From: an uncultured Gemmatimonadales bacterium
GTDB taxonomy: Bacteria > Gemmatimonadota > Gemmatimonadetes > Longimicrobiales > RSA9
Assembly: GCA_963708135.1 (NCBI GenBank)
Contig: OY970192.1
Coordinates: 5,184,001 to 5,248,000, forward strand
Length of the DNA: 64,000 nucleotides
Direction of reading: 5' to 3'
The stretch's first letter is position 1, and each line of letters begins with the position of its first letter. Position numbers: made by a program. Positions 45,201 to 51,200 of this stretch are shown one piece after another.

Positions 45201-48200
45201 CGCGCGCTACCTGCCGCTCTTCCGCGACCACCGCGTGGCCGGCCAGTGGCTGCCGAAGACCATGTACATCACGCGCTTCCAGGACGCGAGCTTCCGCCCC
45301 GTGGCCGATTTCGAGGAGGACGTGGATCCCGGCACGGGCAGCGTGCCGGGCGTTCGCATCGAGGGCGACTCGCTGTCCACGTGGAAGGAGGGCGACATCG
45401 CGCTCCGCTGGAAGAGCTCGCGCGGCGCCGGCCGCAACGCCACGCAGGACAACCAGGCCGTGTGGCTCGGCTGGAACGACCGCTACGCGGGCGCGGACAC
45501 GACCCGCCGCGGGCGGCCCGCGAGCTACACCATCGTGCTGCCGGACTCGCTCGCCGCGGCGTGGCGCCTGGACGCCGGCGCGCAGCTCCAGCTGCTGCTC
45601 GCGCCCACGGACGAGATGCCGGGCCCGCGCGCGCTGCCGAAGGCGCTGGCCGAGGCGGAGAAGGCGGCCGGGAAGGGAGGCGGGAAGGGTGGAGCCGCGA
45701 GGAAGCGGGGGAAGCGGGACCTCACGGATCTCCCGCCCATCGACCTCAGCGTCGAGCTGCTCGACGCGGACGGCGACTCCGCGCGCGTGCCGCTCGACCG
45801 CTACGGCGCGATCCGCCACCCGCTCGTCACGCACCCGGTCCGCCGCGGCGACATGGAGCGGGAGGAGTTCGCCCGCCCGTACGAGTACGTGCTCCAGACC
45901 TACACGGTCCCGCTCTCCGATTTCCGCCAGGCGACGTCGCCGCTCGACCTCGCCCGGCTCCGCCGCATCCGCCTGGTGTTCGACCGCGCGCCGGCGGGGA
46001 CGGTGATCCTGGACGGCGTCGGCTTCGCGCGGCTCGACCCGGCGTTCATGAAGGACCGGCTGCCTTCCGGGGCGACGTCTCCAGTCTCCGAAGCCACCCT
46101 CGACCCTTCCCACGCGACGGGGTCCGGCGTCACGGCCGCCAGCGCACCTCGAAGCGGTGGGCGGCCGCGCCGTTGAAGGACTCGTAGGCGTAGTCGAGGC
46201 CGATGGCGTCGCCCGTGAAGCCGGCGCCCAGGGTGAGGGGGCTGCCGCCGTAGTCCTCCACCCGGCGGGCGCCGGCGCGCAGGTAGAAGGTACGGCCGAC
46301 CACGGGCCAGTAGCCGAGCTCGATGCCGCCACCGGGGAGCAGCGTGCCGTCGCGGCTGCGGGCGAGCGCGGCGGCGGCGCGCAGGTCGAGGGGGCCGAGG
46401 GTCACGCTGCGGCGCGTCGCCAGCTGGAGCGAGACGCGGGTGGGCAGCGGCACCGGGACGCGGTCCACGCGCAGGTCGCGCCCGAAGTCGTGCAGCGCCA
46501 GCCCGATGGCGAGGATGCTCACGTCGGCCCCGAAGCCCACATCACCGGCCACGGTGGCGGAGTGGATGACGCCGCTGCGCTGCTCGACGAGCTTGGCGGC
46601 CACGCCCACCCGGAGCCCCCGGACCGGCCGTCCGTACCCCAGCGTCGCGACGTGCTCGGCGACGGGCAGCGCGCCCGTCGCGGTGAGGTCCCGCTCGCGC
46701 TCGCGGCGCAGGATCGGGCTCGCCGCCGCGGCGTAGTCGAGCGACTGGAGGCCGCCGGCGAGGGCGCCGCCCAGCCACGCCCCGCCGCCCGCCAGGGTGA
46801 GGAGCGTGCTCTCCCCGCCGAAGCGCTCCGCCCCGAGCGAAAAGCCGCGCAGGCCGTCGGCGTACGCCGGGTCGTAGAAGAGGCCAGCGGCGTCGGCGGA
46901 GCCGAGCAGGAAGGCATTGCCCATCCCGAGCGCGCGGGTGGAGGCGGGCAGCTCGAGCACGAGTGGCGTGCGGGGCGCACTCTGGGCGGCGAGTCGGCCG
47001 GCACCGCCGAGCGGCGCCGCGCCCGGTAGCGCGATGGCCAGCAGCGCGGCGGCCGCCAGGGCGACGGCCCGCGGCGCCCCGGCGGCGGGGCGCGCCCCGC
47101 GCGGGCGCCGCACGAACCGCTGGCGCCGGGGGATCGACTCGCGGCTCGCCGGCCGCCGTGCCGCGCGGGCCGGCCCTGCGGCGGTCGTGGCGTCGCTGCC
47201 CTGGGGTGCGCTCATCGGCTCTCCGTGTTCAGGCCGCCTCGGTCCGCCTCAGGCCGCGGCCGCGGCCGGCCGGCACACCTTGCAGGGGCGGAACCCGGCG
47301 CGCGCGGCGGCGCGGGCGTCCGCGAGCGGGACGCGGCTGGCGGGCGAGACCCGGCGGACGTGGCGACAGGTCGGATGGCAGTAGATCCCGGTGGTGCGGC
47401 AACCTACGTAGCGCGTCCCTTCGCGCGCCAGCGTCTCCATCTCGTCCACGGGCGCGCCCTCCGCCTCGAGGACGGCCCGCTTGGTGCCGGCCCCGCCGAG
47501 GGAGTACGCGCCGATCCCGCCCGAGGCGGGCACCACGCGGTGGCAGGGGACCAGGAGCGGCACGGGGTTGCGGGCCAGCGCCGTGCCCACGGCGCGGACC
47601 GCGCGGGGCCGCCCCGCCTCCCGCGCCACCCAGCCGTAGGGCCGTGCCTCGCCGGGGGGAATGCGGCGGATCGTCTCCAGCACCGTCCGCTGGAAGCCGC
47701 GTGCGGCCGCCAGGTCCACGGGCGCGTTCCGGTCCCCCCGCCCGGCCGCGGCGTCGGCCACGGCGCGCGCCAGCGCCGCCGGCACCTCCCGCGGCACCGG
47801 CGGGCGGCCGAGCCGGCCGGCGTACCAGGCGACGAACTCCGCCTCGGGCTCGAGCGCGGAGCGCACGGCGCGAATCCCCTTCGGCCCGAAGGCGACGCGC
47901 ATCGGGCCGAGCGCGGTCTCGACCACGCCCATGCCATCGGCCGCCTCGCGGAGCACGGCGCCCATGACTCCCGCGGGGGCGCTCCGCCGCAGCGCGGGCG
48001 CCGCCTCCGCCAGCGCGCCGGCGAGCGCCGCCACCCGCTCCCGCGCCGCCGCGCACGCCGTGCAGGAGCGCAGGTGCTCCAGAACCGCCTCCGCCTCGGC
48101 GGCGGCAAGCTCGCCGGCGTCCAGCGCCTCGAGCCGCGCTCTCACGCCCTCACAGCGCATCGCTCACCTCCTCGTCCTCCAGGATCTCTCGCAGGCGGGC

Positions 48201-51200
48201 CAGTGCGCGGAACACCCTGCCGCGCGCCGCCGCCTCCGTGCCGCCGATCACCGCCGCGATCTCCGCGTAGGAGAGCTCCCCGAGGAAGCGCAGCGTGACC
48301 GCCTCGCGGCCGCCCTCGTCCAGCGCCGCGAGCGCGCGCTCGAGTGCCCGGTGCCGCTCGGCCACGAGGAGGCGGGCCTCCGCCGCGGGCGGGCGGGCGG
48401 CGGCCGCGTCGCCTGCGGCCGCCTCCAGCGGAACGAGCGCGGTCCGGTCGGCGCGCCCCGAGCGCAGCCGGTTCAGGCACAGGTTGCGCACGATGCGGAG
48501 CAGCCAGGGCCGGAGCGGGAGCGCCGCGCAGCGCGCCTCGTCGTACTGCGCGGTGAGGGCGCGGTGGGCGCGCACGAGTGCGTCCTGCACCACCTCCTGC
48601 CCGTCCGCCCGCCCGACCATCCGGCTGGCGTAGTCGAACAGGCGGTCCTGGTGCAGGGCGACGAGGCGCTCGAGCGCCCCCGGCTCTTCCCGGTGAACCG
48701 CCACCGCGAGCGCGCCGCGGCGCCGCTCGTCCCGTTTCTCAACTCTCATGGTCGGCATCATTCCGGAGACACGCGCGGCGGCCGCCGCGTTCGCGCCGCC
48801 GGTACAATCTCTGCATTGTTCGGCCGCCACCGCAGCCCAGCCGCCCCGACGGCGCCGGAGCCGACCTTGATCATCGACTGCCACACGCACCTGAACCGCT
48901 ACAACGATGGCGAGCCGGCCGCGCTCGCGGACCGCTACGGCGCGCTGCGCGCCGAGATGGAGCGGAACGCCGTGGACTACGCGCTCGTGCTCTCGAGCTA
49001 CAAGGTCAACGGCGAGCGCCCCGGCGTGGACGAGATCCTGGACGTCGTGGACGACGATCCGCGCCTCGGCGTGGTGGCCGGCGTCAGCTACGAGCACTAC
49101 CGCGCCGCGGACCTGGCGCACCTGAGGATCCTGCTTAGGACGCGTCGCATCAAGGCGCTCAAGCTCTACCCCGGCTACGAGGCCTACTACATCCACGACC
49201 CCCGCATGCGCGTGGTGTACGAGCTGGCCGCCGAGTTCGGCGTCCCGGTCATGATCCACACGGGCGACACCTTCGACCCGAAGGGCAGGGTCAAGTACGC
49301 GCACCCGCTCGAGGTGGACGAGGTGGCCGTCAACTTCCGCGACGTCACCTTCGTCATCTGCCACCTCGGCAACCCGTGGATCACCGACGCCATGGAGGTC
49401 ATCTACAAGAACGAGAACGTCGTCGGCGACATCTCCGGCTTCACCCTCGGGCACTTCGAGGAGCGCTTCGAGCGCTACATGCTCCAGCAGGTCAACGAGG
49501 TCGTCGCCTTCGCCGGTGATCCCTCGAAGCTGCTGTACGGCACCGACTGGCCGATCTGCGACATGGGCGGCTACCTGCGCTTCGTGCGCCAGCTCGAGCT
49601 GCGCGAGGAAGAGATCGACATGATCCTGTGGAAGAACGCCGCCCGCATATTCCACATCGACACGGACGAGCTGGAGGCGCCGTGAGCACCGACGCCGGGC
49701 GCCGCGCCCCGGGCGCCGCCGCCGCGCCGGACACGGGCCCGCCGCCGCGCCGCTCGGAGAATCTCGACGTGGCGCGCATCGTCGAGATCACCGACGAGCG
49801 CGGCCCCATTGCCGACGCCGCCCTCGGCCTCATCGAGGCCGCGTTCGAGCCGCCCGACCGCCAGCCCGTCTCCGAGCTGCGCTCCGAGGTGGCCGAGAAA
49901 CGGCTCCAGCTGCTCACCGCCTACGACTTCCACCTGCTCACCGCGCTCGACGCCGCCAGCCGCCCCATCGGCACCATCGCCGGCGTCTACCTGGCCGGCG
50001 TGAACGCCGGGTTCGTGACCTACCTCACCGTCCTCGAGGCGCACCGCGGCCGGCGCATCGCCCGGCAGCTGCGCCGGCGCCTGGTGGAGACGTTCCGCAC
50101 CAATGCCCGCCAGGCCGGCCACGAGGAGCTCAACTGGGTGCTGGGCGAGGTGCGCGCCGACAACTCGTGGCTGCGCGGGCTGGTGCGCCACCGCGGCGCG
50201 ATCCCCTTCGACCTCGGGTACTTCCATCCAGGCATGATCCCCGGCGTCCCCCACGACCGCTACGTCCTCTACCGCCAGCCCGTCGGCGACGCGCGCGTCG
50301 AGCTGCCCGCATCTCTCGTCCGCCGCATCCTGTTCGTCATCTACCGTCGCGCCTACCGCGTACGCTACCCCCTGGAGCGGGAGGCCTTCCGCGCCATGCT
50401 GGCGCAGCTCGAGGACCGCGAGATGGTGGGGATGCACCGGGAGTGGCGCCAGCGGCCGGGGGCCGGGCAATAGGGGGTTCGGGGGAACAAATGCCGCTCG
50501 AGCGGTGGTACTCACTGCTGCACACCTAGATCTCCCGTCCGACAGCCCGGCCGCCGCAGCCCGCTCCGATCCACGCCCAAGCGAGGATATCGGTCATAGT
50601 CACCATGCTTTCCATCCCCTGGATCCTGGCGCTCGCCACCGGCCTCGCCGCGCCCGCCCCGCAGGTGCCGGCCCCGATCGCCGCAGGCGACGGCGCCACC
50701 GCGGGCGCCGAGCGCGCGTCCGGCGCCGTGGGGGCCGACACGGCCGGCCGGAACGTGCGTCCCGGCAACGCGACGCACCTGCGCATCGAGGTCGCGCCCG
50801 CGGAGACAATGGCCGTCACGCTCGCCGGGGAGGGGTCGCCGGTCGTGATCGTGCCGGGGATGCTCGGCGCCGCGTTCGGGTTCCGGAAGGTGATCCCGCT
50901 GCTCGAGGCCGAGGGCCGCCGGGTGGTCGTGATCGACCCGCTCGGCACCGGGGCGTCTTCCCGGCCACGCCACGCCGACTACTCCTTCACCGCCCAGGCC
51001 GACCGGGTGGCGGCCGTGCTCGACAGCCTCGGGATCGGCGGCGCCGTGGCCGTCTGCCACGCCCTGGGTGCCTCGATCTGCTATCGGCTGGCGTACCGGC
51101 ACCCGGGCGCGCTGGCCGGCATCGTCTCGCTGAACGGCGGCCCGGCCGAGCAGGTGGGCAGCCCCGGGCTCCGCTTCGCCCTCCGCTTCGGGCCGCTGCT

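Follow-up and report, generated by a model that had tools for sequence, protein, structure and literature searches.

Described systems

ECF sigma factors are known to respond to envelope, redox and metal signals, and in the literature searched we found none that is switched by DNA damage via its anti-sigma factor. According to the supplement of Casas-Pastor et al. (2021; PMC7826278), the group ECF203 occurs exclusively in Actinobacteria (100%), with MGMT at position +1 and Ada_Zn_binding nearby; neither an anti-sigma factor nor a conserved promoter was found, and a TetR protein was suggested as regulator. ECF122 also has MGMT at +1, is listed without an anti-sigma factor and has the promoter CTCAC...CGTCTAC; its description there mentions no Ada zinc domain (PMC7826278 supplement; PMC8999054).

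Two non-sigma systems are also relevant. As described in PMC4437013, E. coli Ada, like AdaA-AlkA, uses two suicide methyl-accepting modules, targets alkA and regulates itself positively (PDB 1sfe, 1adn, 1u8b), with defined roles for C38, R45 and R71. In Caulobacter Cada2, methylation of the PCHR cysteine is the proven switch, and Cada2 and Ada seldom occur in one genome (about 7%). The main text of that study, in which 'ECF' occurs 0 times, presents Cada2 as a DNA-binding activator without sigma or anti-sigma factor (PMC10957082).

Here we analyse a gene pair in a 64,000-nucleotide stretch (the window) of a Gemmatimonadota genome (5.4 Mb, 97.65% complete, one contig). Like ECF203, as its supplementary description has it, the pair combines MGMT at +1 with an Ada zinc domain; unlike ECF203, it has a Gemmatimonadota host, a full zinc-binding anti-sigma (ZAS) domain in the +1 protein and a conserved promoter. 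With ECF122, again by description, it shares MGMT at +1, but its promoter (GCGAAC...GTGTT) is different. Judged from sequence, the pair is probably an undescribed bacterial way of sensing alkylation damage. Since the ECF-MGMT-Ada_Zn neighbourhood is already catalogued as ECF203, the undescribed part is confined to the circuit and the anti-sigma role; no anti-sigma factor fused to an alkyltransferase turned up in the literature searched, which left most subscription papers out of reach. We read the pair as an adaptive response to alkylation built on a sigma factor and its anti-sigma factor, and consider this reading as a whole reasonably likely.

Gene pair and homologues

The features of the locus, in window coordinates, are:

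48767..48794 (-), predicted ECF promoter of the operon, GCGAACG-N14-CGTGTCT (-35 GCGAAC, -10 GTGTC)
48150..48749 (-), ECF sigma factor gene, 199 aa; Pfam Sigma70_r2 and Sigma70_r4_2, TIGR02937 above cut-off
47249..48160 (-), anti-sigma/alkyltransferase/Ada-zinc fusion gene (the partner), 303 aa, assigned by Pfam profiles
47936..48160 (-), putative zinc anti-sigma domain, residues 1-75; zf-HC2, with C3, H29, C33 and C36; four helices
47450..47935 (-), O6-alkylguanine-DNA alkyltransferase, both subdomains, acceptor C206 in PCHRV; TIGR00589 82.6 bits, cut-off 46.4
47267..47422 (-), Ada-type Cys4 zinc module, C261, C265, C293 and C296; Pfam Ada_Zn_binding, residues 247-298
47252..47266 (-), C-terminal tail of five Ala, candidate ssrA-like ClpXP degron by the frequency of Ala-Ala ends

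The two genes overlap by 11 nt and lie exactly where the initial annotation had placed them, although the sigma gene has alternative in-frame ATGs 3 and 4 codons upstream of its start. The pair is flanked in the window by a PorV-like gene downstream and a divergent amidohydrolase gene. We set both aside as parts of the system, as they do not recur as such at relatives' loci. We also rejected repair genes as constant company of the pair: neighbourhoods are lineage-specific, and only the sigma and partner genes are common to all loci.

The HxxxCxxC motif had been reported in 53 of the 120 best homologues, which our count reproduces; all 53 also carry the other two motifs under our own regular expression, a slight upward revision of the 50 first given. 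The association with an ECF gene directly upstream also held. Counting only loci with more than 500 nt of upstream DNA, it is found at 9/9 ZAS-Ogt-AdaZn loci (our own included) and 65/66 ZAS-less Ogt-AdaZn loci, the sole exception (L019) being frameshifted with sigma pieces upstream. The 11-nt overlap is seen in 10/11 ZAS-type loci. None of 14 classical Ada loci has an ECF gene upstream.

The partner as a putative anti-sigma factor

In ZAS anti-sigma factors the zinc site has the spacing Cys-x(23-26)-HxxxCxxC. The partner matches zf-HC2 over residues 3-37 (24.6 bits, Pfam cut-off 22.2), and C3, H29, C33 and C36 are invariant in 42 alignment rows of ZAS-bearing members. We compared residues 2-75 of an AlphaFold2 model of the 303-aa protein (pLDDT 95.7, pTM 0.80) with solved structures using VIA-align. 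RsiW (5wuq_C) aligned with Z 7.5 and rmsd 2.6 over 70 of 70 residues, MucA with Z 7.4 and RslA with Z 6.0; Z below 8 is modest, and the anti-sigma fold is supported by several anti-sigmas standing at the top of the ranking. This match came via VIA-align; Foldseek with the whole model returned alkyltransferases and N-Ada only, and when residues 1-78 were searched by sequence against solved structures, ChrR was the single hit (E 6.1, not significant). RsiW, RslA and ChrR share the four-helix anti-sigma fold with HxxxCxxC. The anti-sigma role proposed in the initial annotation is thus backed by motif, RsiW-like fold and gene position. The partner, made together with the sigma factor, would very likely hold it by its N-terminal anti-sigma helices, a step that is strongly supported.

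Residues 44-74 of the domain are kept in ZAS-less relatives, for which the profile alignment starts at residue 43. For one such pair (L063), both proteins at full length, the predicted complex scored 0.83 against 0.33 for the best of three controls, with runs agreeing in at least 97% of contacts and partner pLDDT of at least 90. The mark for this score was reached by 116/157 solved and 2/215 mismatched pairs and is rough here, because we used our own alignments; resemblance to sigma/anti-sigma complexes already solved may also account for the pass. In the prediction, partner residues 4-29 lie on sigma regions 2 and 4, so that the retained helices would be what binds the sigma factor in this zinc-less relative. 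The earlier suggestion that the partner is the anti-sigma factor missing from MGMT-linked ECF groups gains from this predicted complex, with putative membership in ECF203 or ECF122 read from the descriptions of these groups. The methyl-accepting domains are nearly contact-free with the sigma factor in the prediction, which argues that release would not be a simple steric effect.

Methyl-accepting modules and C-terminal tail

The alkyltransferase has the two-subdomain Ogt fold (1sfe, Z 16.6, rmsd 2.4, 161 of 165 aligned, VIA-align), and Pfam DNA_binding_1 covers residues 156-236 with PCHRV inside. Y175, R189, N198, P205-R208 (with acceptor C206) and E234 are invariant in 131 alignment rows. We take these to be the conserved Tyr, Arg finger, Asn hinge and Glu beside the acceptor cysteine of PCHR. 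All four Ada cysteines are invariant in the same 131 rows, as is PCHR; C261, C265, C293 and C296 align to Ada C38, C42, C69 and C72. Given these conserved active sites, the suicide modules very likely accept methyl groups, C206 from O6-methylguanine and C261 from methylphosphotriesters.

Compared with E. coli Ada as described in PMC4437013, the partner's domain order is reversed, with the zinc module C-terminal rather than N-terminal, and the proposed output is sigma release rather than promoter activation. The Ada profile PRK15435 gives 81.5 bits against a cut-off of 345, and profile searches found no HTH_18 or HTH_AraC match. The Ada residues R45 and R71 correspond to V268 and V295, and other family members have mostly Ala, and His or Val, at these positions; the A-box-reading arginines are lost. 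This bears on the idea of the partner acting as co-activator or tether: once methylated, its zinc module would bind DNA more strongly, by an electrostatic switch like the one described for Ada in PMC4437013, and bring the sigma factor to promoters. The C38 equivalent and neighbouring basic residues are indeed kept, but without a helix-turn-helix or the two arginines, with the predicted interface covering sigma regions 2 and 4, and with no second conserved box evident beside -35 and -10 in the aligned promoters, we regard this as very improbable. Nor does the partner resemble Cada2 in layout, as the DNA-binding domain that precedes the methyltransferase in Cada2 is replaced by the anti-sigma domain (N-terminal 75 residues), which is followed by Ogt and Ada zinc alone.

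The Ala-Ala tail sits a few residues past the last zinc ligand, and the last residues have low confidence in the AlphaFold2 model. Such ends occur in 43/78 locus partners vs 0/72 sigmas and 3.0% of 2845 ORFs of the same genome, with tails of 4-11 residues and 15 codon combinations; after dereplication at 65% the count falls to 39/140. They are absent from a whole Acidimicrobiia subclade (0/10) and from Rubrobacter. ECF sigma factors are released through ssrA-like VAA degrons (bioRxiv 10.1101/491043), the xAA end resembles the degrons of ClpXP-released RseA and RsdA fragments, and clpX is present in the genome. The Ala-Ala end is a likely ClpXP degron by sequence. Unlike ZAS anti-sigmas, RseA and RsdA, the partner is soluble, its sensor would be a DNA-repair enzyme, and Ala-Ala is its natural C-terminus without membrane proteolysis.

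Promoter sites and candidate regulon

A clade-specific consensus, GCGAACG-N15-GTGTT, lies upstream of 9/9 ZAS-type sigma genes. The operon's own promoter is a sub-optimal copy (genome-wide rank 16-236 with its own site excluded from the matrix), and the best match in the genome instead stands in front of a distant alkA-ogt operon, 6 nt away. This site ranks first, or ties for ranks 1-2, under all 8 matrices built without our genome, and 20 Markov-3 random genomes contained no site as good. The free sigma factor would thus very probably transcribe its own operon and alkA-ogt in this genome, as the promoter motifs indicate.

The genome's sole Ada_Zn domain is the partner's. We found neither Ada nor Cada2, judging Cada2 by PCHR proteins, and no PCHR protein beyond the partner except a plain Ogt. 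In the nearest alkA orthologue (51% identity), an AdaA-AlkA fusion is followed by ogt, and there is no such promoter site. A similar near exclusion is seen in Acidimicrobiia, where another Ada zinc domain occurs in 0/40 carriers of the pair vs 19/40 non-carriers, although the carriers are related and do not represent 40 independent events. The initial annotation's link to alkylation repair is strengthened by the promoter before alkA-ogt and the missing Ada, while release of the sigma factor by methylation is still what we infer.

Beyond this genome the targets differ, and we rejected alkA as a general regulon member. In three other ZAS-type genomes (G401, G982 and G1001) the alkA-like genes lack the site, leaving it in 1/4; classical Ada is present in G401 and G982 but was not seen in G1001 (65% complete). 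Among the ZAS-less Acidimicrobiia, 58 carriers have 42 non-self sites, and 0/42 precede alkA among the downstream frames listed. Four further ZAS-less genomes have an alkA-like gene with the site (G402), inside the operon (G405) or neither (two).

The module could instead sense methylation without being mainly a DNA-repair regulator. Its conserved output would then comprise the operon and an EamA exporter, perhaps one for methylated bases or for a methylating compound, and control of alkA would be a local gain. The targets above accord with this: the commonest second target in the 58 carriers is an EamA transporter (14/42 non-self sites), EamA directly follows the partner in 17/68 ZAS-less loci vs AlkA-like genes nearby in 4, and in G1001 an EamA frame has a ZAS-type site upstream. 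However, the partner is itself a repair enzyme, so self-induction is already a repair response; alkA-ogt has our genome's top site, and the single EamA gene found in this genome has none. Together with the near exclusion of Ada, this makes the exporter explanation improbable, slightly more so than the thiol switch discussed below.

Proposed circuit

We return to the sigma/anti-sigma adaptive response. Once the partner has accepted methyl groups, its irreversible self-methylation probably frees the sigma factor. The likeliest route would be that methylation exposes the Ala-Ala tail and ClpXP degrades the inhibitor, for and against which we find the balance about even. Fresh unmethylated inhibitor would end the response once damage is gone, and in this genome the module would replace Ada. 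It would share with Cada2, as presented in PMC10957082, the role of an adaptive regulator other than Ada that switches when a PCHR cysteine is methylated.

More tentatively, and on balance with some doubt, this could be a third widespread adaptive-response architecture after Ada and Cada2. The suicide repair enzyme would be the anti-sigma factor, methyl acceptance would unmask a ClpXP degron, and destruction of the inhibitor would turn on the ECF regulon. Such modules would have displaced Ada in several lineages and arisen at least twice (with ECF203-like and ECF122-like sigmas), and the regulator reported as absent from ECF203 and ECF122 would be the anti-sigma remnant of about 30 residues. 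If true, regulator, promoter and signal would all be known for the uncharacterised MGMT-linked ECF groups, and the adaptive response would have a sigma-based route as well. The reading makes specific predictions that can be tested inexpensively, on one promoter, two acceptor cysteines and a degron of two residues.

Variation and distribution

The sigma clades follow partner type and have distinct -35 elements, and the window's sigma factor groups with other ZAS-partner sigmas (SH-aLRT 97; quick tree, midpoint-rooted). The Ogt-domain tree is poorly resolved (46/86 inner branches open). Among three- or two-module loci with enough DNA, 66/75 have no zinc motif, and the remnant helices of ZAS-less relatives suggest loss as the direction of change.

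These loci also bear on an ordinary thiol- or zinc-sensing ZAS switch, in which oxidation or direct alkylation at C3/H29/C33/C36 frees the sigma factor and the alkyltransferase domains are fused repair cargo. Zinc release is known from the literature to free sigma L from RslA, the four ligands are invariant as noted, and ZAS-clade sigmas, unlike ZAS-less ones, carry an insertion in region 2 with a conserved Cys. Yet the 66 loci without the motif keep the pairing, the promoter and a predicted sigma interface, PCHR and the Ada cysteines do not vary, and a separate second ZAS-Ogt fusion adjoins a distantly related sigma factor. We consider such a switch unlikely and keep methylation as the preferred signal.

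A separate Gemmatimonadota ZAS-Ogt family has the motif TTCAC-N16/17-CGT in 8/10 cases, closer to ECF122, as described, than the window's pair. The pair itself is as patchy as first noted, with carriers in 2/401 genomes of the order, our own included. A class-wide DNA search usefully added G982 and G1001 amid many short chance matches, and none of 11 candidate stretches of viral contigs was confirmed as a relative. The ZAS-less sister clade includes Actinomycetota, and ZAS-less copies have harmless cultured hosts in Rubrobacter radiotolerans RSPS-4 and Nonomuraea gerenzanensis.

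Domain architecture and fold of the gene pair

As the initial annotation had it, an ECF sigma factor gene is followed by the gene for a three-domain partner, and the two overlap by 11 nt:

48150-48749, (-), ECF sigma factor, 199 aa
47249-48160, (-), anti-sigma/alkyltransferase/Ada-zinc fusion partner, 303 aa, starting 11 nt within the end of the sigma gene

Profile search placed zf-HC2 at partner residues 3-37, an alkyltransferase C-domain with PCHRV at 156-236 and Ada_Zn_binding at 247-298. In structure comparisons with a confident AlphaFold2 model (pLDDT 95.7, pTM 0.80), residues 2-75 matched the anti-sigma factor RsiW over their entire length (Z 7.5, rmsd 2.6, 70 aligned), and the next-ranked anti-sigmas were MucA and RslA; residues 73-237 matched E. 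coli C-Ada (Z 16.6, rmsd 2.4, 161 aligned) and residues 239-299 N-Ada (Z 7.6, rmsd 2.8, 57 aligned). None of the catalytic or zinc residues varies across 131 aligned homologues. On every feature assessable here, the partner is a zinc anti-sigma (ZAS) protein and an alkyltransferase; it functions like Ada, yet is no member of the Ada family. Ada reads the A box through R45 and R71 (PMC4437013), whose equivalents in the partner are V268 and V295, and a domain search found no helix-turn-helix in the 303 residues. Judged by its residues, the zinc module could accept a methyl group and should not be expected to read promoters. The further interpretation, that the partner is an anti-sigma factor tied to alkylation repair, is supported, and a sigma/anti-sigma form of the adaptive response to alkylation, the explanation we favour, is fairly probable.

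A PorV/PorQ-like gene (46130-47215(-); NF033709, under cut-off) lies 33 nt 3' of the partner and does not recur at other loci. The sigma factor also carries a cysteine, C74, in a region-2 insertion (motif YDEARC, in the region of 48528-48530 of the window), common to ZAS-clade sigmas and absent from ZAS-less ones.

Distribution and predicted sigma binding

All three motifs occur in 53 of the 120 best homologues. The zinc motif is absent from the other 67, whose alignment to the partner begins at about residue 43 and which retain a helix-Ala-Pro-helix remnant. We surveyed 120 loci, scoring those with more than 500 nt upstream and leaving out 14 with less (the sigma was visible in 5 of these anyway). 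The claim that an ECF gene directly precedes ZAS-bearing and nearly all ZAS-less members held: it did so at 9/9 ZAS-Ogt-AdaZn loci (Ogt, the alkyltransferase), 65/66 ZAS-less loci and 12/12 ZAS-Ogt loci without the Ada module, one of which, L027, is merely truncated by a contig end. None of 14 classical Ada loci above that length had one. Five more loci were Ogt-only, with the sigma scored in one. A quick tree of 83 rows places the ZAS-type sigmas together (SH-aLRT 97), next to the ZAS-less ones (84).

The three-module form is as patchy as first described, occurring in 2 of 401 order genomes (source genome included), plus two genomes of another family (G982 and G1001), and is thus rare near the source genome. 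In the Atlas, a 77-member cluster of this architecture is most frequent in Acidobacteriota, and 60 of 251 Acidimicrobiia genomes carry the ZAS-less form; one of these 60 (G604) is marked unpublished, and nothing claimed here depends on that genome alone. Cultured hosts of a ZAS-less pair with a matching promoter include Rubrobacter radiotolerans (plasmid 2, L319:2076-3444) and Nonomuraea gerenzanensis (L320). In one subgroup (L021, L046, L052, L072, L074, L078), a PP2C/SpoIIE-like phosphatase gene, its family judged by eye, lies 3' of the partner.

For one ZAS-less pair (L063), we predicted the complex of both full-length proteins from 56-row alignments, alongside three controls. It scored 0.83 vs 0.33 for the best control, with contacts agreeing in at least 97% between runs and partner pLDDT of at least 90; the complex-score mark was reached by 116/157 solved and 2/215 mismatched pairs, counts that are only rough for custom alignments. 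In the predicted interface, the partner's remnant helices (residues 4-29) pack against residues 21-61 and 126-184 of the sigma, with residues 73 and 75 in addition. This model supports an anti-sigma role without a zinc site; its score may possibly reflect likeness to solved complexes.

Promoter motifs and predicted targets

GAACG-N15-GKGT lies upstream of 9/9 ZAS-type sigmas and of those in G982 and G1001, and GCAAC-N18-GTT upstream of 54/61 ZAS-less sigmas. The -35 difference is paralleled in the region-4 recognition helix (EAAxRGKVFR vs GTVKxxVHRG). L027, of the same sigma group as the ZAS-type, had no GAACG-N15-GKGT within the 130 nt inspected. Scanning the entire 5.45-Mb source genome with a matrix gave a single outstanding site (28.3 bits; runner-up 22.8) at G000:C1:276012(-), 6 nt upstream of a 345-aa AlkA (HhH-GPD 8e-12, weak AlkA_N) whose gene shows translational coupling to that of a plain Ogt:

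G000:C1:274431-276012 (L121:4432-6013), (-), alkA-ogt operon, outside the window; strongest match to the sigma's promoter in the whole genome

Under each of 8 matrices built without the source genome, this site came top or shared the top rank, and 20 Markov-3 random genomes held none as good. The sigma operon's own site is weaker, ranking 16-236 with these matrices. A match of about 20 bits at G000:C1:3832166(+), 10 nt upstream of a secreted SMP-30/gluconolactonase-like gene (L123:1706-2830), possibly marks a further target or arose by chance.

No promoter site was found at alkA-like genes in the other ZAS-type genomes, G401, G982 and G1001. G401 and G982 retain classical Ada, which may explain their alkA without the site; classical Ada was not found in G1001 (65% complete), where a site lies upstream of an EamA transporter frame. 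Scanning 58 ZAS-less carriers with the strict pattern returned 86 matches, vs 8 with the reversed control. Of the 86, 43 belong to the operon, one belongs to a further sigma whose contig is broken, and 42 lie at other positions. Among these 42, 14 sit 7-27 nt upstream of EamA genes and single sites precede MFS, AzlC and PQ-loop genes, with no alkA in the frames listed. The 58 non-carriers gave 21 matches vs 7 for the control; 8 of the 21 were examined, with EamA behind none and one being a family sigma overlooked on a broken contig. At ZAS-less loci, EamA lies directly 3' of the partner in 17/68 and AlkA-like genes lie nearby in 4, and in G402, a ZAS-less genome, a 24.4-bit site precedes an AlkA-like gene. 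From these site counts across carriers and ZAS-type genomes, the predicted regulon is one of general autoregulation, with EamA as the most frequent second target and alkA lineage-specific.

EamA genes with the family promoter are found at L185, L196, L204, L206, L212, L215, L216, L218, L220-L224, L229 and L275. In G402, a near-perfect ZAS-less promoter stands before a gene that joins a peptidase S26-like domain to an AlkA-like glycosylase (L144:1573-2475). A repeated Acidimicrobiia element matching the ZAS-less pattern (TGCAACCNTT...GCACRAGTGTTC), with no clear gene behind it (L192, L211, L217, L219, L228, L231), looks mobile.

Probable replacement of Ada

The single Ada_Zn domain of the source genome (97.65% complete, one contig) is that of the partner. 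Searches for Ada_Zn and Ogt-like proteins found neither Ada nor Cada2, the Caulobacter adaptive-response regulator, there, since only three Ogt-like proteins are present: the partner itself, the Ogt encoded behind alkA, and an alkyltransferase-like protein with PWWRV. A close alkA orthologue turned up just once in 72 family genomes (G696, L246; 51% identity). It encodes a 484-aa AdaA-AlkA fusion, has ogt behind it and lacks any promoter site above 13 bits; relative to this fusion, the source genome's alkA starts at the end of the Ada part and has no AdaA part. We also compared 40 of the 58 Acidimicrobiia carriers with 40 non-carriers picked among larger genomes: a second Ada domain occurred in 0/40 (one contig-end fragment aside) vs 19/40, a pattern rather than a statistic because the genomes are related. 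According to Kamat et al., Ada and Cada2 likewise almost exclude each other (PMC10957082).

Candidate release mechanism

The partner ends in five alanines, seven residues past its last zinc ligand. An Ala-Ala ending occurs in 43/78 locus partners, vs 0/72 cognate sigmas and 3.0% of 2845 own-genome ORFs, and in 0/17 Ada-type or plain Ogt frames. It is bound to the C-terminus, with tails of 4-11 residues and 15 codon combinations, most commonly VAA, LAA, AAA and IAA. After dereplication at 65%, it remained in 12/41 ZAS and 27/99 ZAS-less members; one subclade (0/10) and Rubrobacter lack it. The methyl acceptors lie outside the predicted interface of the L063 model. Alkylated alkyltransferases turn unstable, and methylation at C261 or C206 would expose the Ala-Ala tail. 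ECF sigmas are described as freed when ClpXP degrades anti-sigma fragments ending in VAA (bioRxiv 10.1101/491043), ssrA and Ala tails as directing proteins to ClpXP (PMC8767453), and clpX is present in the source genome. In Cada2, switching by methylation of a PCHR cysteine is proven (PMC10957082).

Relation to known ECF groups

This neighbourhood is already catalogued as ECF203 and ECF122, the latter reportedly originating with Huang et al. 2015. The group descriptions in Casas-Pastor et al. 2021 (PMC7826278) place O6-methylguanine methyltransferase (MGMT) at +1 in both and give no anti-sigma for either; for ECF203 they note Ada_Zn nearby and no conserved promoter. The ECF-MGMT grouping is restated without an anti-sigma in a review (PMC8999054). 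The source-genome pair is a candidate sister group, probably of ECF203. The literature searched held no description of an anti-sigma/alkyltransferase fusion. New here, all computationally, are the predicted target operon, the evidence for a module replacing Ada, the predicted complex of the zinc-less form and the candidate release mechanism.

A second ZAS-Ogt fusion family in Gemmatimonadota, without the Ada zinc module, lies beside a distant ECF sigma (L093-L097, L099, L100, L102, L104, L107, L120). Often a small membrane-like ORF separates promoter and sigma, and TTCAC-N16/17-CGT, resembling the ECF122 promoter, occurs upstream in 8/10.
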